IMG/VR virus record: IMGVR_UViG_3300021600_000007
Coordinates: 1 to 52,801 of that record
Reading direction: 5' to 3' (one strand)
DNA: 52,801 nt
Origin: a virus
Lineage: Duplodnaviria > Caudoviricetes
Shown here: positions 4,914-33,106 of the stretch, piece by piece
Position numbering within the stretch: the stretch's first letter is position 1
How the letters are laid out: every line of letters begins with the position of its first letter
Translations under genes and position numbers: made by a program
The notes under the pieces: model-generated
Told to the model about the DNA's origin: nothing
Seen by the model: the letters and a program-made list of their open reading frames with translations, nothing else
Databases searched by the model: none

Positions 4914-7133
4914 TTATTTTAAAACATTCAAACTACCTGATAATACTTTTCGATAGTCAGTCTTTAATGCTTTGAGTTCTACATTCCATGTATAAATTCC
5001 GATTGGTACCATTCGATTATTAAACGTTCCATCCCATCCCTCTTCAATATCATGAGATTCCCATATAATTTCACCCCATCTATTAAATAATGTCATCTTG
5101 TATCCGTAAATGTCAAACCCTGAAGTTACTATAGGTAACCATGTATTGTTATGTTCATCACCATCAGGAGTAAACGAGTTTGGAATATATAAAATGTCTT
5201 GAGGACATTGGATTATGGTTATTACTGTTTCTTGTTGTGGTGATGCACATTCATTAACATAATTCACAACAGATAATGTAAACATTCCAAATTCATTCCA
5301 ACTTGTATTAAATGTTTCAGTTTGTGTTGTATTGTTTAATAATGTCCATTCGTTATATCCACCAGGAACTGTTGAAACAATACTATATATACTTGGTATT
5401 GAATCTCCATCACATAGTTCAAAGAAATCGTTGTATGGAGTTATTTGAGAGATTGTTGGTCTTTCATAAACAATGATGTTTGTTGTTGTATCAAAGATAC
5501 ATCCACTTTGAATATATGTGTATGTAATATTATTGTTTAATGTATCCGCATTGGATGGGTAGAAATCATTTCCTGTAATTCCTGTACCATTAAACACTCC
5601 TCCGATTGGTGTTGCGCTTAATGTGGTAAATTCATCGTTGGAACAAAATGGTCCAATAGGTGTTATAACGGGAATTACATTAAAGATTGTAATGTCGAAC
5701 GATACAGGTACACTTATACATCCATTTGGACTTACGGCAACCATGTCAACCGCATTTGGAATGAACCCTGCAGGAAACCCTGACCAATCAACAACGATTG
5801 AATCTGTTCCTTGACCTGAAACAATATTACCAACTGACATCCATTGATATGTGTATCCAATACCTAAATCAGTTGTGGTATATACTATATTTGTTGATTC
5901 ATAACATACCGTATCTGAAGCGATGATTGGGTTTGCAATTACAGGTAATGGATTAACTAATGTTGCTCCACCTGAAACGGTACATCCTGCGGCATCGACA
6001 ACGGTGAATGAATATGCTCCCGCACATAAATTATTTATTGTGAACGATGGTAATTGACCATTCCAAGAAATGGTGATAACACCTGTTCCTCCAATTGATA
6101 TTACATTAATTGCGCCATCACAACTACCTGTACAATTTGGATTGAATGTTGTTACAATTGGTGGTGGTAAATTTGGTGGACCTGGTGCAACAAAAACCGT
6201 ATCAGGTCCTAAGTTACCCGTATTTAAATTACAGGATGTCCATCCCGCATTACATGTTGGGTATACAAAATGACAAGTATAGTTTGTTCCTCCTGCAGGT
6301 GGTGTAACCGTAATGGTTGGTCCCGTTCCTATTGGAGTTGAGTTACCTACCTGATACCAAGTTAACGTTGGAGTAACTACAGGACCGCTTGGTGTCCATC
6401 TGTAAGCATCATTGTTTGCCGTCCAAGCAGTTGAGTTTCTACCTGCAACAGCAATACCAATAGTTCCACCTAAATTATGTATCCCTTGTGTTGATGTACC
6501 TCCTTGCCATTGTAAACACGCAGGTTTACTTTGAATGTAACTCTCAATATTGTTGGATGATTCGTATATTACAATATGAAAAGTTCCTTGATTACCTGTA
6601 CAAGAAAACATAGGAACTCCAATCCAACTAACAACAAGTTTTCTACATGGTGCAACTCCTTGAACTTGATATTTGATTTGACCTCCAATACCAGGATGCC
6701 AATCTTGCCAAGGTCCCATGATACAATTCTTAGGCACTAACGGATTAGCCGTTGGGATTGGTTGAGATGTAAACGTTACGGGTTGTCCTCCACTGAATGA
6801 AATCCAACCATTAGACCCAACATAAAATTGAGTATAGGTTGTACCAAAGAAACAGAAGTTAAACCCAATACTAAATGGTCCTTGTTGGGAATCATCTGTC
6901 ATAAACAAACTTGTCCCTGTGTTGGTTTGAGCAACGTACGGTATGTTAGTAACACCGTAGTTTGTTGTTTGATTTGGGTTTACACCACCTCCACCACATT
7001 GGGATAGGTTAGCGGTTAATGTTGTCGTACCAATACCACATGGAAGTAATTGGTCAGGTCCTAAATCAGGACAATACTGCGTATACCCCATAGACGTTAA
7101 TAGGGTTAAAAATAAAATAGTTAGTAATCTCAT
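4914..7133 (-). CDS. secreted beta-rich protein with gliding-motility-associated (T9SS type B) C-terminal domain
   Basis: signal peptide MRLLTILFLTLLTSMGYTQ; SprB/Ig-like Cys-Gly-Thr segments; C-terminal YIPNSFTPDGDEHNNTW...FNRWGE...GWDG signature. Confidence 0.85.
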   Translation of the reverse strand: MRLLTILFLTLLTSMGYTQYCPDLGPDQLLPCGIGTTTLTANLSQCGGGGVNPNQTTNYGVTNIPYVAQTNTGTSLFMTDDSQQGPFSIGFNFCFFGTTYTQFYVGSNGWISFSGGQPVTFTSQPIPTANPLVPKNCIMGPWQDWHPGIGGQIKYQVQGVAPCRKLVVSWIGVPMFSCTGNQGTFHIVIYESSNNIESYIQSKPACLQWQGGTSTQGIHNLGGTIGIAVAGRNSTAWTANNDAYRWTPSGPVVTPTLTWYQVGNSTPIGTGPTITVTPPAGGTNYTCHFVYPTCNAGWTSCNLNTGNLGPDTVFVAPGPPNLPPPIVTTFNPNCTGSCDGAINVISIGGTGVITISWNGQLPSFTINNLCAGAYSFTVVDAAGCTVSGGATLVNPLPVIANPIIASDTVCYESTNIVYTTTDLGIGYTYQWMSVGNIVSGQGTDSIVVDWSGFPAGFIPNAVDMVAVSPNGCISVPVSFDITIFNVIPVITPIGPFCSNDEFTTLSATPIGGVFNGTGITGNDFYPSNADTLNNNITYTYIQSGCIFDTTTNIIVYERPTISQITPYNDFFELCDGDSIPSIYSIVSTVPGGYNEWTLLNNTTQTETFNTSWNEFGMFTLSVVNYVNECASPQQETVITIIQCPQDILYIPNSFTPDGDEHNNTWLPIVTSGFDIYGYKMTLFNRWGEIIWESHDIEEGWDGTFNNRMVPIGIYTWNVELKALKTDYRKVLSGSLNVLK

Positions 7134-7264
7134 ATTGATAATTAGTTTAGTGTCCAATATATTAGACGTTAGTTCAACGTTAAAGTACGATGAATGAATA
7201 ATAATACTTATATTTTTATTATTCAACTATTTTCAACAATTAATAATTACTATCTTTATAACAT

Positions 7265-24168: not shown

Positions 24169-25014
24169 TTATTTACCTAACGATTTATCATCAACCATTT
24201 TCTTTTCAATTGCACCTAACTTATCGTAAGCCGATTTATAATCTAACGGTTGATTCTTTTTCATAATAGACAATTCAATCGAACTCATATCAGTTAATTT
24301 TTTTGGTGCGGTAGGTGTTTCTGTCGTTGCTGGTGTTGTTGTTGCCGCTACTGAGGTAGTTCCCGCTGTTTGAGATTTAATCGCTCTTGATGCCAAGTTC
24401 TTAGCGTTTGCGGGATAATTCTTACTTATGTTATAAACTTTATTAGTTGTTGAGTTTTTACCATACCAAGTTCCATTTTGGTTAGCATATACAAATTTAG
24501 TATCACCAGGATATGTATAGTCAAAAGTTAAACCATTAATAATGTTTTGGTCAATTACTGATGTCTGTGTTTTAGTTTGAACAGTTTTTACAGGTTCTTT
24601 AGCTGCAGGTTTATTGTAAGCAGCATCTTTAACTGTAACCATTTTATTTCCCTCTAATTTCCAAGAACCTTTAATTGTTGGTTCTCCTGTAGTTACACCT
24701 TTAGGATATTGATACCATCTGTTTTGAGTGTAAATTATTGTTGAATTTGGATTGTAGTCATACTTCAATGCGGATTTACCTGAATATGTAGTTCTTTCCA
24801 GTCTATAACTATTACTTACTTTTGGGTATAGTTGGTCAATCCAATTATCATCATTTGGAGCCAATTCAGGTGCCTGAGCCAATTGTTGTTGGTTTACACG
24901 GTCCATATTAATATCGGCACTACCTTGTTCGTTCAAAGTTTTTGACTTGTCATAAGTGACAAGTTCTTTCATTCTATTAATTTCTTCTTGAAGAATAAAT
25001 TTTTTTTTGTTCAT
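24169..25014 (-). CDS. hypothetical, probably virion-associated protein
   Basis: LQEEINRMKEL..TLNEQ N-terminus; TATTTAT upstream; Thr/Ala-rich linkers. Confidence 0.65.
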   Translation of the reverse strand: MNKKKFILQEEINRMKELVTYDKSKTLNEQGSADINMDRVNQQQLAQAPELAPNDDNWIDQLYPKVSNSYRLERTTYSGKSALKYDYNPNSTIIYTQNRWYQYPKGVTTGEPTIKGSWKLEGNKMVTVKDAAYNKPAAKEPVKTVQTKTQTSVIDQNIINGLTFDYTYPGDTKFVYANQNGTWYGKNSTTNKVYNISKNYPANAKNLASRAIKSQTAGTTSVAATTTPATTETPTAPKKLTDMSSIELSIMKKNQPLDYKSAYDKLGAIEKKMVDDKSLGK

Positions 25015-25044
25015 GATTTTTTATTTATAAATATCCAATAAAAC

Positions 25045-25070
25045 AAAAACCCCCACATTTCTGTTAGGGA
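25045..25070 (-). terminator. intrinsic terminator (recurrent family, variant)
   Basis: AAAAACCCCCACATTTCTGTTAGGGA. Confidence 0.6.
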
Positions 25071-25076
25071 TTATTA

Positions 25077-25643
25077 TTACCAACTTTTACAAGCCCAATA
25101 ACGGGGTTTCCATCTTGGTCCTGGTGTATCACAATTCATTCTTGCTCTAAAGTTCTTTCTACGTTCAGGATTATTTTTTTTAATTACCATCCTTTTCCCA
25201 TGTGCAGATTTTCCACCAAAACCAAAGTTTACCTTAACAACCTTTCCCTTATCATTTTTAACATATACCTTGAATTTCTTAACGTCACCTTGCATTCTTT
25301 TTCCCAATTGAACTTTTCTACCTTGATATTCTGCTTCGGTTATTAAATCACCAATAATAAAATTGGTTTCTTCTACTGAGCCAAATTCATCTTCATATAA
25401 AGATTCATTTTTAGGTTTAATACCCCTCTTCTTCATATTAATAGCAATTGCCGCTTGTTGCGCAGGACTTGAAGCTTCATTTGTTTCTTCAGATTCATTC
25501 TTAACACAATTTGGATATTTTTTTCCAAACATTGTTTTCATCCCTTTCTGCTTATAACCACTCCAACATTTTTCCGTTAGTTGTTCTTTTGAATCATTTT
25601 CAAATATGGTTTTAAATTGTTGTTCAGTTATTATTATTTTCAT
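25077..25643 (-). CDS. conserved large-phage basic protein with MKIIITEQQF tag
   Basis: modules CWSGY..PNCVK and EAEYQGRKV..KFKVYV..KVNFG..FRAR.NC..RYWAC..W. Confidence 0.75.
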   Translation of the reverse strand: MKIIITEQQFKTIFENDSKEQLTEKCWSGYKQKGMKTMFGKKYPNCVKNESEETNEASSPAQQAAIAINMKKRGIKPKNESLYEDEFGSVEETNFIIGDLITEAEYQGRKVQLGKRMQGDVKKFKVYVKNDKGKVVKVNFGFGGKSAHGKRMVIKKNNPERRKNFRARMNCDTPGPRWKPRYWACKSW

Positions 25644-25665
25644 ACTAATAAATATATCGTAAAAC

Positions 25666-25695
25666 AAAAAACCCCAACAATTTCTTGTCGGGGTT
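25666..25695 (-). terminator. intrinsic terminator closing the large ncRNA
   Basis: AACCCCGACAA-GAAA-TTGTTGGGGTT-TTTT. Confidence 0.8.
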
Positions 25696-26600
25696 CTTGG
25701 CTTCAGGTTGAGAATACACCTTCTTACGAGAGACTTTACAGGAGATTATTGTTTACTCCGATTTCCACTTCCTTTTGAGAAGTACCTCTCAGTCACGGTC
25801 AATTAGATTAACCAATCCTTGAGTCGTAATCTACTCTGTTTTTACTCGTTGCTCTTCAAGGTTGCCACCCTGATTATGTCTTGCGGACTTAGAGAACTTT
25901 CACAACAATCGTATTAGGCTTGGGACCTTTTACGGCCATGAACATCTCATGACTATGTAGTGACCTGTCAATCACGACTGGCGAACGCTTTTCCTTGTAT
26001 CTTTTAGTTGTTAAACCTTAATTAACAAAGTTTGCGGTTGTGGATGATGAAAGTAGCGGTTCGCCGACCAAGCCATGTTATCTTTTGAACAACACGATAC
26101 TTAACTACTCTCTGAAATGTCCCCATCTCCATACTTCAAGTTTGTTTCATCTTAAATCTCTTGGTAGAGATTTTAAGAAGGAATCACCAGCACCACCTGT
26201 ATGACCTCTTACCTTTCGGTTTTAAACCCACTCTTGTAATGAATCACGCAATAGTATGGTAGGATAACCATATGTCTTACAATAATTCTACGAGTTATTC
26301 TTATTGATGTTCCCACCTCAACCAAACGACCCACATCGCTTGGTCATCAAACCAGTTTCCCTACAGTGTCACCCTCGGTACTCAAGGTCTAACGATATCT
26401 CGCTTGTCTACTCGAGCTCCCTTTCGGAAGCCGCAAACCACTTAACCAAATGATTCACTTTATACCACTTTCATGGTTTATTTTATGGACTATAGACCGC
26501 CCAATATCTTTATCAGATTAAATGTCTCATAATCAACCCGAAGGTCTTATAATCAACTACTGAACGGATAATATCTTTAATTCAAAGAACGTTTTCTTAA
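25696..26600 (-). ncRNA. large (~900 nt) structured ncRNA, GOLLD-like
   Basis: no ORF >=60 aa in any frame, higher GC than flanks, several GNRA-capped hairpins, own promoter and terminator, adjacent to tRNA; family assignment inferred from size, context and remembered motifs. Confidence 0.7.
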
Positions 26601-26608
26601 TTGTTTTA

Positions 26609-26640
26609 CAAAGATAAGTATACTTTTTTGATTTTCCAAA
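26609..26640 (-). promoter_or_regulatory. Bacteroidota-type promoter for large ncRNA
   Basis: TTTG-N20-TATCTTTG. Confidence 0.75.
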
Positions 26641-26667
26641 TCTTTTGTAAACTTTTTTTTTGTTTAG

Positions 26668-26739
26668 TTGCGGGGGAAGGATTCGAACCTCCGACCTACG
26701 GGTTATGAGCCCGTCAAGCTACCACTGCTCTACCCCACG
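26668..26739 (-). tRNA. tRNA-Met (CAT), initiator type
   Basis: cloverleaf CGTGGGG..CTCATAA..GGTTCGAATCC..CCCCGCAA; C1:A72 mismatch and GGG/CCC anticodon stem; CCA not encoded. Confidence 0.93.
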
Positions 26740-27044
26740 ATATATTTTATGTTAAAAAACTTTAATATTAATGTCTCACAAAGATAAAACTATTTTTTCA
26801 AATAACCAAATGTTTGTGAGACATTTTTTTGAGACTCTCATCTCAATTGTTTCACAAAGATAAACAAAATTCTCATTCTGTCAAATTTTTTATGAAACTT
26901 TTTTGGGGATGTCCGTCATTTCTGACTGAAACAATAAATATACCCAACAATTTCAAAAGTACTACTTTTTTATAGATAAGTCAAATTTTTCCTATAAAAA
27001 AGTTAAAATTAACATATCTTCCAACATTCTTTGTATTTATTGAT

Positions 27045-27392
27045 ATGAAAGTTAAAATCAACGACAACATCTTTAAAGTTAAAACACTGATAGATAGCAA
27101 ATCTAAATCTATTGGAATGATGGGTAAGAAATTTGATAAAACTTTTAACGGATTGTTATTCTTAACAGGTGGTGACAAGCAATCTTTTTGGATGAAGAAT
27201 TGTATCATACCGTTAGACATCATCATTATTAAAAATAATGTGATTGTTAATATACACCACAATTGCCCTCCATGTCGTGGAAATGAATGTCCAAGTTACG
27301 GTGGAAACGGAAATATTGTATTAGAAGTTAAGGGTGGAACTTGTGAATATTTGGATATTGAAGCTGGAGATACCGTTGATTACTTACTTTGA
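27045..27392 (+). CDS. DUF192 family protein
   Basis: GMM..GLLF..FWMKNC.IPLDII..VLEV.GG. Confidence 0.85.
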   Translation: MKVKINDNIFKVKTLIDSKSKSIGMMGKKFDKTFNGLLFLTGGDKQSFWMKNCIIPLDIIIIKNNVIVNIHHNCPPCRGNECPSYGGNGNIVLEVKGGTCEYLDIEAGDTVDYLL

Positions 27393-28781
27393 TTCGGCAA
27401 TCTTTTCTTTAAGTTTCTTTTCAAACTCAGTCGCAATCATCTTTGTAAACTTAACTGAAGGTGAATCATCTTTTTCAGAATCATATTTATATTGTCCTTG
27501 AGGTGGTCTTTTACCTCTTCCCAAATAATTTAAACCTGAAATGTTTGTGATACATTTGTGTCCACCTGAATTTGATTGAATTAAATCCCAAGCGTTAATT
27601 CCTATTTTATCTAACATAGCTCTATGTTCTTCAGTCAAATCTTTGAATGGTGTTTCCATCATTTCATGAATATGGTCTAAAGCCTTTTCACCACCGTCAA
27701 TTGTGGTAAACTTATCACCATATAAAGCTTCAAAATCTTTAAATGTAAATCCAATACTTTCAGGACCTACAGAAGTTTCACTAACCCACTTAATAGTTGA
27801 TAAAGGAATTGTTCTTTGTTTTAGTTGGTCTTCCCATTTACCTACAACTTCTTGAGCAATCTCGCCTAAGTTAACACCTTTTAACTCTCTTTCTTTTTTG
27901 AATGGATTACAAGACGCTTGAACTAATCCCATTGGCCACGCCATAATTAAAAAGTCAGCATCAGGATTATTTCTGAATGGAGTATATCTATCATAAGAGC
28001 CAGGTTTAAACATACTACCACCACCATATTGGAAAATAATACTATCACTAACTCTTGGATAACCTTTCATTTTTGTTTTATAATCTTCAGCGTTTTTTTG
28101 TAGTTCTTCTGGTTTTGCAGCATTTGTTCTCTTCATCCATTCTTTAATGTTTGTTAAAATAGACATTAAAGATGGTTCAGAATCCATAACTAATGATTCT
28201 AAAAACCCTGGTTTGTTTTTAAACGCCAATAATAACTTATTAATAACCAAACCTAATAACATTTTGTTTTTTTGAAGTGGTTTCTCTTTATCTAATCGGT
28301 AGATATAGTTTACAACCTCATCAGGTGTAATATCATGTTTAGCATAATCTGCAGAGTCAACCGTATTAATTAATAAAATATCTGAAGATGGAAACAAATC
28401 TTTTGGTGATACCACTTGAGATATTGTTTCTACATTTGAACGAGCTCCTCTAAATTGTTTTGAAGTTCCCTTTTCAACACCAACTTGTTTGTCGTGGTGG
28501 TCCGTATGAATTACGAACATTGGCTTACCGTGAGCAAAGTCTACAAGAACTGGCATCACATCTCCCTGAGCATCATTCTTTTTAACTGCAAATTCTTTGT
28601 CACCGTATTGGATTATGTGAGCACCCACTACATCAATACCATTGTCTTCAAGGTATCTTTTCATTGCGATTGCAGTCGTCACGCCATCCAAATCTTGGTG
28701 GAAGTATATCTCTGCTTTAGAATATCTTTTCTTTAACTCAGAAATATCTCTTATTCCTGTTTCTTTAATTAGTTTTCTCAT
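27384..28781 (-). CDS. DHH-family phosphoesterase-like protein
   Basis: HQDLDG, VDF, TDHH, GGH motifs. Confidence 0.7.
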   Translation of the reverse strand: MRKLIKETGIRDISELKKRYSKAEIYFHQDLDGVTTAIAMKRYLEDNGIDVVGAHIIQYGDKEFAVKKNDAQGDVMPVLVDFAHGKPMFVIHTDHHDKQVGVEKGTSKQFRGARSNVETISQVVSPKDLFPSSDILLINTVDSADYAKHDITPDEVVNYIYRLDKEKPLQKNKMLLGLVINKLLLAFKNKPGFLESLVMDSEPSLMSILTNIKEWMKRTNAAKPEELQKNAEDYKTKMKGYPRVSDSIIFQYGGGSMFKPGSYDRYTPFRNNPDADFLIMAWPMGLVQASCNPFKKERELKGVNLGEIAQEVVGKWEDQLKQRTIPLSTIKWVSETSVGPESIGFTFKDFEALYGDKFTTIDGGEKALDHIHEMMETPFKDLTEEHRAMLDKIGINAWDLIQSNSGGHKCITNISGLNYLGRGKRPPQGQYKYDSEKDDSPSVKFTKMIATEFEKKLKEKIAESK

Positions 28782-29188
28782 TAATCCCAAGATGCTGTCA
28801 CTTTAATACCATTATTACCCAATTCAACACCAAACATAACTCCCATATCACCTTTTTTAATTTTAGCTAATTCACCTTTTGGTACAAAAGTTAACTCACC
28901 ATCTTCATTAGTAATTTCAATAAAATCTTTAGATTTAAATTGTTTACCCGTAGGATTTGATACACCTCCAACTTTAACTCCACGAGAATTTACAATCTCC
29001 CAAACGTACTCAGGATTTTGCATCCATTTATATTCTGTTGGAAATTCAGACCTATGTGCAAAGTTTTTCTTTGCAATATCACTAAGAGAACCTTTCATTG
29101 ATGGAGTCATACTTTCTTCTTCTTGAATCACTCTTTTAACTATTCGAGCTAAATCAGATTCAGTTAATCTTATAATTTTTTGTCCCAT
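28781..29188 (-). CDS. hypothetical protein with KIIRLTESDLARIVKRVIQEE tag
   Basis: 135 aa ORF. Confidence 0.7.
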   Translation of the reverse strand: MGQKIIRLTESDLARIVKRVIQEEESMTPSMKGSLSDIAKKNFAHRSEFPTEYKWMQNPEYVWEIVNSRGVKVGGVSNPTGKQFKSKDFIEITNEDGELTFVPKGELAKIKKGDMGVMFGVELGNNGIKVTASWD

Positions 29189-31900: not shown

Positions 31901-33106
31901 TTATTTCCCATTTAAATTAAACTTTATTTCCTCAGGTTTTGTATTCGCCTTGGACTCCATCATCTCAGATGTTAATTCATATTCTTCATCATTTTGATAC
32001 TCATTGAGTAATTCTTCATTTGAAAGTGTGCCAAACTTTTCATTTAAATCACTAGTATTATAATCACTCATATTATTTTTCATGGTCATAAGTTCTTCCG
32101 CAAATTTTAAACTATCCAAAATTACTTTTGTAACTCTATATGGGTCAGCGTTTGAACCTGGTCTTCTATCTTCCAAATATCCTGTCCAAGATGATGCCGT
32201 AGATATAGGAACTCTAATTGACGCTCCTCTGTCAGCAATACCCCAAGAGAATTTATCCATTGATTGTGTTTCGTTTTTACCAGTCAATCTGTATTCATTA
32301 CCAGAACCATAATTTTTAATATGAACATCATGTCTTGATTCAAATGCATTGAAAATAGATTTGAAGTACTCTTCACCACCTTCAGTTCTCATTCTTTCAT
32401 TGGAGAAGTTGCAGTGCATTCCTGAACCATTCCAATCGCCATGTCTTATTGGTTTTGGATTCAAATCAATATTTAAATTATAATACTCAGCAACTTTGTA
32501 TAACAAATAACGAGACATCCACAAATCATCAGATGCTTTAATCGCTCCTTTAGAGAATAGTTGGTATTCCCATTGACCTAACAAAACTTCAGCATTTACA
32601 CCAGTAATGTCTAATCCAGCATTTAAACATAGTTGTAAGTGCATGTCAACAAATTCTCTTTCTGACACATTTTTTGTACCTACACCACAATAATATTCTC
32701 CTTGATGTTTAGGAAATCCTTTTTCAGGAAATCCAGCGATATTACCGTCTTTGGTTTTTAGAACATATTCTTGTTCAAATCCAAACCATATAGAATCATC
32801 ATCTAAACCTATTTCAGCTCTTAAATTAGATTTGTGTTCATTCCCAGTCATTGGGTCCATTACCTCGCACAAAACATAGTTAGTTGCATATTGACTAATA
32901 TCAAATGACGGATAAAGTCTTACAGGTCGGAGAATACAATCTGAAAAATTACCTTCAGCTTGTTTAGTAGATGAACCATCAAACGACCATAATGGTAAGT
33001 CATCCAATCCAAATTCCATTGGTAAATCAAGGATTTTAATTTTACTTCTTAAATTTGGTTCGGGACTGTATCCATCTAACCAAATATATTCTAATTTAGT
33101 TTTCAT
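31901..33106 (-). CDS. glnII: glutamine synthetase type II
   Basis: EYIWLDG..LRSK, W.FDGSST.QA, GFEQEY, YYCGVG, NAEV..GQWE, PKP..GDWNGSG.H, RGASIR, EDRRP.SN.DPY. Confidence 0.92.
   Translation of the reverse strand: MKTKLEYIWLDGYSPEPNLRSKIKILDLPMEFGLDDLPLWSFDGSSTKQAEGNFSDCILRPVRLYPSFDISQYATNYVLCEVMDPMTGNEHKSNLRAEIGLDDDSIWFGFEQEYVLKTKDGNIAGFPEKGFPKHQGEYYCGVGTKNVSEREFVDMHLQLCLNAGLDITGVNAEVLLGQWEYQLFSKGAIKASDDLWMSRYLLYKVAEYYNLNIDLNPKPIRHGDWNGSGMHCNFSNERMRTEGGEEYFKSIFNAFESRHDVHIKNYGSGNEYRLTGKNETQSMDKFSWGIADRGASIRVPISTASSWTGYLEDRRPGSNADPYRVTKVILDSLKFAEELMTMKNNMSDYNTSDLNEKFGTLSNEELLNEYQNDEEYELTSEMMESKANTKPEEIKFNLNGK

Follow-up and report, generated by a model that had tools for sequence, protein, structure and literature searches.

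A long ORF-free stretch matches the GOLLD RNA family

The virus record IMGVR_UViG_3300021600_000007, analyzed here over its full length of 52,801 nucleotides (nt; hereafter the window), contains a single long stretch free of open reading frames (ORFs). An initial annotation, made from the sequence without database searches, had described this stretch as a standalone, GOLLD-like non-coding RNA gene of about 900 nt, lying downstream of an initiator tRNA and bracketed on the minus strand by a promoter and a terminator. The elements so described are all present, either exactly where they were placed or a few bases away. No ORF of 90 or more amino acids occurs in 25668-26980, and the other gaps between such ORFs in the window are all shorter than about 450 nt; the longest frames inside 25668-26640 encode only 32-54 amino acids. 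Beyond the stretch, a 93-amino acid frame at 26981-27262 (minus strand) overlaps the conserved DUF192 gene at 27045-27392 (plus strand). The GC content is 0.40-0.43 over 25700-26600, compared with 0.30-0.34 in the left flank and 0.24-0.30 in the right, so that the stretch is indeed GC-richer than its surroundings. It was also said to have multiple short hairpins, and the single-sequence fold of a 906-nt RNA from this region has a z-score of -3.8 against 20 shuffles.

The Rfam GOLLD model, RF02032, matches 25705-26112 on the minus strand with 322.5 bits (E 1.2e-91), where the gathering score is 150 bits. The match spans all model positions, 1-416 of 416, without truncation, and its composition bias is just 0.3 bits, which argues against an artefact of composition. 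This model describes only the 3' domain of GOLLD, which here is 408 nt long and holds a UCAAAAG loop and an AU-rich linker. Upstream of it on the same strand lie a 5' domain (26114-26502), outside the Rfam model and recognized by homology and covariation, and a variable 5' leader (26503-26600), read from the sequence and alignment, with a small UUCG-loop hairpin at 26535-26546. Leaders of related loci carry differing small hairpins, often with UUCG-type loops. The conserved GOLLD core is 798 nt long, and the length from promoter to terminator is about 900-935 nt, close to the size first proposed. A scan of the whole window with Rfam covariance models, a check that the initial annotation had itself suggested, returned two matches only at gathering thresholds, GOLLD and tRNA. 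Group I and II introns, ROOL, OLE, HEARO, and transfer-messenger RNA (tmRNA) had no match at gathering score in the window, nor did ARAGORN find a tmRNA there. The other possibility named there, a new large RNA class, is not supported. We found no evidence against the family call in this analysis, and we are highly confident that the stretch is a GOLLD RNA gene in a fragment of a freshwater jumbo phage, probably one with a Bacteroidota host.

The 5' domain and a collection of related loci

The 5' portion of about 390 nt (26114-26502) is a second structured domain, homologous to the 5' halves of other GOLLD loci. Rfam has no model for this half, and a scan of 26100-26680 at E<=1 gave a single chance match to a small RNA (E 0.96). 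When 25600-26800 was searched by blastn against GenBank phages, two of the matches listed (30 of 133) fell in the GOLLD part, while the remaining 28 matched the tRNA. The two are uncultured phages, LR745206.1 (634,780 bases) and LR756502.1 (642,428 bases), in which the matching segment lies upstream of the Rfam GOLLD part; directly beside it RF02032 scores 287.3 and 275.3 bits, respectively. The window RNA and both GenBank sequences align over their entire length, and one of the two phages has a tRNA-Met at the corresponding upstream position.

Homology of the 5' domain extends to the loci L002 and L003 and to IMG/VR loci found by a 5'-domain pattern. That pattern, 17 nt long, retrieved at least 119 loci from IMG/VR, and 119 of 119 match a hidden Markov model (HMM) built on the whole RNA. 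Of the matches, 98 run the full length, and 57 are left after redundancy at 92% identity is removed. In the relatives examined, a 5' half never occurs without a GOLLD 3' half joined to it. After removal of three truncated representatives (L028, L094, and L047), the alignment, designated A2, comprises 54 non-redundant sequences, one of which (L001) is the window itself. A second 5'-domain pattern, CAGGTGGTGCTGNTG, run against viral contigs, produced a list of 120 stretches in which only L008 and L228 are GOLLD and the rest are chance matches. The genome-contig scan for a host, with GAGCTCGAGTANNCAAG, gave one real match among 120 listed and is uninformative as to host. This match is a 272-nt contig (L312, NZ_JAEEGB010000114.1) in the assembly of Clostridium aciditolerans DSM 17425, which matches positions 243-512 of the 5'-domain HMM with 183 bits; such a match is odd in an isolate genome, and the contig may be a stray one.

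Secondary structure and long-range pairings

The consensus structure, computed by RNAalifold from the 54-sequence alignment, contains 223 pairs in 43 helices. Over the whole RNA these positions are paired in 95.2% of cases, as against 77.2% in shuffles (0 of 500 reach the observed value) and 39-44% when partners are slid by 1-3 columns, a control that is somewhat flattering because the structure is counted on its own source alignment. The compensatory counts are unaffected by this: changes occur on both sides in 159 of the 223 pairs, which is the outcome of the covariation analysis of homologs that had been proposed at the outset. The 5' domain taken alone has 114 pairs in 22 helices, 96.1% paired (79.7% in shuffles, 0 of 500; 36-42% with slid partners), and 83 of the 114 are compensatory. 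Helices 25-43 (columns 639-1085), which belong to the 3' domain, are mostly 94-100% paired, with most pairs changed on both sides.

Scanning for covarying antiparallel segments outside the nested structure identified four long-range pairings, which total 21 pairs and are 98.6% paired (81.3% in shuffles, 31-47% with slid partners). Coordinates of all four are on the minus strand. The hairpin loop UGUGGG of the 5' domain (26330-26335) covaries with the start of the linker, UCCACA at 26039-26044; the six pairs are 95.4% paired and four have changed on both sides, and as far as sequence can tell the contact may lie within one subunit or between two. The tetraloop UCUA (26493-26496) covaries with UAGA at 26407-26410, in what would be a pseudoknot or a kissing contact, its four pairs being 100% paired and two of them changed on both sides, in 17 and 33 of the 54 sequences. 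The bulge segment GGCGAA (26060-26065) pairs with UUCGCC at 25980-25985 and closes the linker into a loop, with six pairs that are 100% paired and all changed on both sides. Finally, a 3'-domain pseudoknot joins 25961-25965 to 25791-25795 through five pairs, 99.6% paired and four of them changed on both sides.

The linker between the domains (approximately 25986-26048; columns 703-799 of alignment A2) is AU-rich, variable in length, and gappy. Two loops stand out for their conservation: the A-rich loop UCAAAAG at 26082-26088, in which CAAAA is the same in all 54 sequences, and a GAAA loop at about 26211-26220, likewise invariant and situated within a three-hairpin insertion of the 5' domain. 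The covariation scan, which detects only pairs that vary, revealed no pairing of the linker with a loop in the 3' domain, the region of the published bridge B7 (L20 with J13/15).

Promoter, terminator, and RNA evidence

The promoter proposed in the initial annotation is a pattern match, TTTG-N20-TATCTTTG, at 26609-26640 (minus strand), of the Bacteroidota -33/-7 type. Motifs of the form TTTG-N17-22-TAnnTTTG, which we take to be the Bacteroidota sigma-A housekeeping promoter consensus, number 20 in the window versus 4.5 expected, and 0 of 100 shuffles reach 20. The copy at 26609-26640 sits 106 nt before the conserved 5' domain, a distance that is most often 93-101 nt in relatives. Of 56 non-redundant relatives, 36 have such a motif on the same strand in the 400 nt upstream, compared to 0 of 56 on the opposite strand and 0 of 56 in shuffles, and it lies between tRNA-Met and GOLLD in 22 of 26 distinct loci with a tRNA-Met and spacer. 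Two further promoter-like motifs (26779-26810 and 26855-26885, minus strand, also pattern matches) are found upstream of the tRNA. As the terminator scan, which covered 25000-27500, showed no terminator-like site between the tRNA and GOLLD, transcripts begun at these motifs in 26779-26885 could read through into GOLLD. The spacer at 26740-27044 is 305 nt long and AT-rich (GC about 0.24); besides these two motifs it holds another on the minus strand at 26954-26985, and a short inverted repeat at about 26830-26850 lies between two of its promoter-like motifs.

At the other end, the scan located an intrinsic terminator at 25667-25698 (minus strand), consisting of the hairpin CCCCGACAAGAAATTGTTGGGG and a T-run, in agreement with the terminator first described. 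Its stem has 14 pairs, 5 of them G-C, and it is the sole terminator-like site in 25000-27500. Shuffled sequence averages 1.1 such sites, which leaves the count by itself without significance; support for the call comes from position and from conservation in relatives, since a hairpin with a T-run is found within 110 nt of the RNA 3' end in 28 of 54, with differing stem sequences. Five relatives (L003, L002, L037, L121, and L058) have an apparent tRNA directly after the GOLLD 3' end and no terminator there (in L003, the tRNA at 1920-1992 abuts the GOLLD match at 2002-2408), and in such loci the 3' end may therefore be set by tRNA processing. On the sequence, then, the GOLLD gene of the window looks like a self-contained unit, with its own promoter motif and intrinsic terminator.

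At least 40% of the sampled words of the stretch are present in 6 RNA and 14 DNA sequencing runs. The label is lake water or freshwater metagenome for 19 of the 20 and simply "metagenome" for the other; the DNA runs come from lake or freshwater metagenomes. Aligned to 24800-27600, contigs from four metatranscriptomic libraries cover 25701-26483 as well as the tRNA, several of them with 0-2 differences over 133-531 nt: X17 has 0 differences over 25703-25915, X16 has 2 over 25791-26321, and X19 has 0 in each of 26172-26306 and 26319-26461. Contigs from two studies end at 25701 and 25703, adjoining the 3' end of the Rfam match, which amounts to a weak hint. The flanks, 24800-25645 and 26774-27600, had no RNA contigs in the four runs, which is no sign of silence, given that the runs were selected for GOLLD and that contigs drop rare sequence. 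The contigs are consistent with an abundant, stable RNA, without being proof of strand, ends, or transcription.

The adjacent initiator-type tRNA-Met

The tRNA beside the stretch had been called an initiator, and the gene bears this out. It is a tRNA-Met (CAT) at 26667-26739 on the minus strand, recognized by ARAGORN and by Rfam (26668-26739), and it lies 165 nt upstream of the conserved GOLLD domain. Its sequence shows a C1xA72 mismatch, an A11:U24 pair, and GGG/CCC closing the anticodon stem. Hallmarks of bacterial initiator tRNAs are just these, the C1xA72 mismatch, A11:U24, and three G-C pairs in the anticodon stem.

Linkage to tRNA genes recurs among related loci. Of 121 related loci with room for a tRNA upstream, 48 have one on the same strand no more than 400 nt away, and the nearest is tRNA-Met in 33; counting any tRNA-Met in that interval gives 34 of 121 loci and 23 distinct tRNA sequences. 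Fourteen of these 23 have CxA at position 1:72, 7 have some other mismatch there, and 2 have a U-A pair; GG/CC closes the anticodon stem in 20 and GGG/CCC does so in 2. Downstream, a tRNA occurs in 9 of 87 related loci.

The phage, its neighboring genes, and its probable host

The window is judged 18% complete as a virus record, which implies a genome of about 290 kb. Related GOLLD-bearing contigs reach 483 kb, and two are complete genomes with terminal repeats, of 308 and 321 kb. PHROGs profiles recognize genes for an endolysin, an HNH endonuclease, and two DNA methyltransferases, and assign no family to most ORFs. The 770-amino acid protein encoded at 4914-7226 (minus strand) ends in a CHU_C type IX secretion signal domain (46.7 bits) and also shows a weak PKD-like domain; it may be a phage protein that is secreted or exposed at the surface. 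Type IX secretion is characteristic of Bacteroidota. Taken together, the CHU_C domain and the promoter motif suggest that the host is probably a member of the Bacteroidota.

Beyond the tRNA lie the DUF192 gene and, at 27384-28790 (minus strand), a gene for a 468-amino acid protein with a sub-threshold match to DHH phosphoesterases (22.6 bits, cut-off 28.1). By tblastn the 468-amino acid protein and the DUF192 protein are found in 57 and 60, respectively, of 122 GOLLD loci, at up to 94% identity; this co-occurrence may be plain synteny among related phages, or may reflect a functional neighbor. Farther off, 31901-33106 (minus strand) encodes a glutamine synthetase-like protein (Gln-synt_C, 56.9 bits; Gln-synt_N, 36.2 bits).

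Ribosomal protein bS21 scores above cut-off in three of ten related GOLLD-carrying records searched, and in three of the five that are at least 90% complete. The genes are at G001:C1:272389-272547 (L363), G002:C1:299562-299720 (L364), and G003:C1:237936-238088 (L362), and the records that carry them measure 308 kb and 321 kb, both with terminal repeats, and 483 kb. The two other GOLLD records at least 90% complete, of 207 kb and 150 kb, yielded no bS21; none was found in the window either, which as an 18% fragment is uninformative on this point. Freshwater phages of 293-331 kb with 31-34% GC and predicted Bacteroidetes hosts are described as encoding bS21 by Chen et al. 2022 (PMC9723584).

Probable assembly into a cage

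The GOLLD env-38 is an RNA of 833 nt found downstream of a Met-tRNA. Kretsch et al. (bioRxiv 10.1101/2024.12.08.627333) describe it as a closed D7 14-mer cage of 380 A, with caps built from the 5' regions, rings built from the 3' regions, and the linker on the inside. The subunits are joined by kissing loops and A-minor contacts; the A-run of loop L14 makes an A-minor bridge, and loop L11a is GAAA (10.1101/2024.12.08.627333). Palindromic loops L21a and L21b also count among the conserved loops through which GOLLD subunits touch. A review lists the cryo-electron microscopy 14-mer of env-38, from a marine metagenome, as PDB 9MEE, and describes a GOLLD from Streptococcus agalactiae (Sag) that lacks P9, P11a-c, and P21b and forms a 12-mer (PMC12990946).

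By homology to env-38 and Sag, the 5' domain of the transcript from the window would form a cap and its 3' domain a ring, with the flexible AU-rich linker between them. Some 12-14 copies would then self-assemble into a closed dihedral nanocage, held by kissing loops and A-minor contacts and needing no protein, with the linkers pointing inward. We consider assembly into a cage likely for the window GOLLD. Its size, domains, linker, and invariant A-rich and GAAA loops fit env-38 and point to the larger class of cage, and since it retains elements missing from the 12-mer form, it is probably one of the 14-mer class.

Function and alternative explanations

GOLLD expression is reported to rise at phage-induced lysis, and ribosomes to be pulled down (10.1101/2024.12.08.627333). 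Because GOLLD is recurrently linked to phage tRNA genes, above all to initiator tRNA-Met, the cage might help the phage to take over translation during lytic growth, for instance by retaining or protecting tRNA or components of the ribosome. We put this forward tentatively, as a role that is possible but more probably not the true one. A narrower proposal, and a distinctly doubtful one, is that in freshwater Bacteroidota jumbo phages GOLLD forms part of a kit for taking over translation initiation, an initiator-tRNA/bS21 module, bS21 being an initiation factor-like ribosomal protein. By binding, concentrating, or shielding initiator tRNA or small ribosomal subunits, the cage would favor the start of translation on phage messages over host ones. 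It is suggested by the tRNA-Met upstream in 34 of 121 loci, by bS21 in three of the five records at least 90% complete, and by the reported ribosome pull-down. Several observations weigh against our overall interpretation of the locus. The RNA contigs come from runs picked for containing the stretch and reveal nothing of strand or ends; DNA may be present in RNA libraries, and relatives that are 90-95% alike account for many of the aligned contigs. Moreover, the 400 nt upstream hold no same-strand tRNA in 73 of the 121 related loci, and ARAGORN finds only one tRNA in the window.

GOLLD could instead be mainly an extension of the tRNA transcript, made as one precursor from the promoters at 26779-26885 and controlling the release, storage, or stability of the initiator tRNA. 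This agrees with the missing terminator between the two genes, with the preponderance of tRNA-Met among the upstream tRNAs (nearest in 33 of the 48 loci that have one), and with a 1:72 position that is unpaired in 21 of 23 distinct tRNA-Met sequences. It would follow the lines of an "inhibited storage" idea for GOLLDs with a tRNA within the linker, which the review PMC12990946 mentions along with a tRNA-Phe inside the linker, J13/15, of the Mycolicibacterium GOLLD. The tRNA of the window, however, lies outside the RNA rather than within the linker, GOLLD has its own promoter motif in the spacer here and in 22 of 26 distinct loci with a tRNA-Met and spacer, and 73 of 121 related loci lack a tRNA in the 400 nt upstream; we judge this explanation unlikely. 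Slightly less probable still is a part in counter-defence, with an abundant, structured, multimeric RNA serving as decoy or sponge for host immunity that targets RNA or cleaves tRNA. Phage tRNAs are commonly interpreted as substitutes for host tRNAs that defence nucleases have cleaved, and the phage location, the strong promoter motif of its own, and the nearby tRNA genes would all suit such a role, as would the rise in expression in phage-induced lysis (10.1101/2024.12.08.627333). Yet PHROGs and Pfam (PADLOC was not run) recognized no adjacent defence or anti-defence gene, the neighbors being DUF192, the weak DHH match, and DUF5856, and a closed cage with conserved contacts between subunits would be more elaborate than a decoy needs. 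That the stretch is not GOLLD at all, but a large RNA of a new class, a ribozyme such as a self-splicing intron, or the remains of a protein gene, is scarcely credible. Such a view could draw on the 5' half, which matches no Rfam family, and on the lack of ORFs. It is opposed by a full-length GOLLD match at more than twice the gathering score, by the missing matches to introns and to the other large RNAs, and by the constant joining of relatives' 5' halves to a GOLLD 3' half. Decay of a protein gene, moreover, would not keep compensatory changes such as those in 159 of 223 pairs. The findings that the initial annotation had named as grounds for rejection, a match to an intron or a decayed gene, or want of covariation and transcription, did not materialize: there is no intron match and no sign of a decayed gene, covariation is abundant, and contigs from RNA libraries lie on the stretch.

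Significance and comparison with known large RNAs

GOLLD is one of the few natural RNAs known to form a closed, protein-free cage. The RNA of the window is one more GOLLD, a family that has lately received much study, in a lake, phage, and tRNA-Met-adjacent setting already described for the family, about which it changes nothing; the surrounding survey supplies useful handles. It provides a closely related set of lake-phage GOLLD loci (at least 119, with 57 non-redundant), whose 5' domains align well enough for covariation and for the four long-range pairings. Evidence for Bacteroidota-type promoters of their own, and often for their own terminators, points to Flavobacteria-like hosts, in which experiment might be feasible. 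The recurrent initiator-type tRNA-Met, together with bS21 in some complete genomes, narrows the functional hypotheses to translation initiation. Among the top matches listed in our literature searches, GOLLD was not paired with Bacteroidetes, Bacteroidota, Flavobacterium, or jumbo or huge phages, so the host assignment and the co-occurrence with bS21 may be small additions; the matches listed on GOLLD, ROOL, and phage give no function. The initiator-tRNA link, the bS21 co-occurrence, and the host assignment are leads only, not results.

Among known systems, ROOL (Rumen-Originating, Ornate, Large) resembles the window RNA in being a large phage or prophage RNA near tRNA arrays that forms RNA-only nanocages and so operates similarly, but its sequence and fold are unrelated, and it had no gathering-score match in the window. 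The GOLLD of Sag and other Lactobacillales prophages (700 nt, 12-mer) shares the family, the conserved 3' domain, carriage by phage or prophage, and proximity to tRNAs. It has a shorter 5' domain, whereas the window RNA is about 100 nt longer and keeps extra 5' hairpins, and its hosts are Firmicutes, in contrast to the probable Bacteroidota host here. A further close counterpart is env-38, which belongs to the RF02032 family, has two domains with an AU-rich linker, and lies downstream of tRNA-Met, as does the RNA described here; its 833 nt compare with a 798-nt core and about 900-935 nt from promoter to terminator in the window. By the text descriptions, the UCAAAAG and GAAA loops may correspond to L14 and L11a, and the three-hairpin insertion in the 5' domain stands where P11a-c would lie, a mapping of helices likewise made by text descriptions only. 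By description rather than by sequence, env-38 differs in being marine, while the window derives from a freshwater lake phage whose host is probably one of the Bacteroidota.

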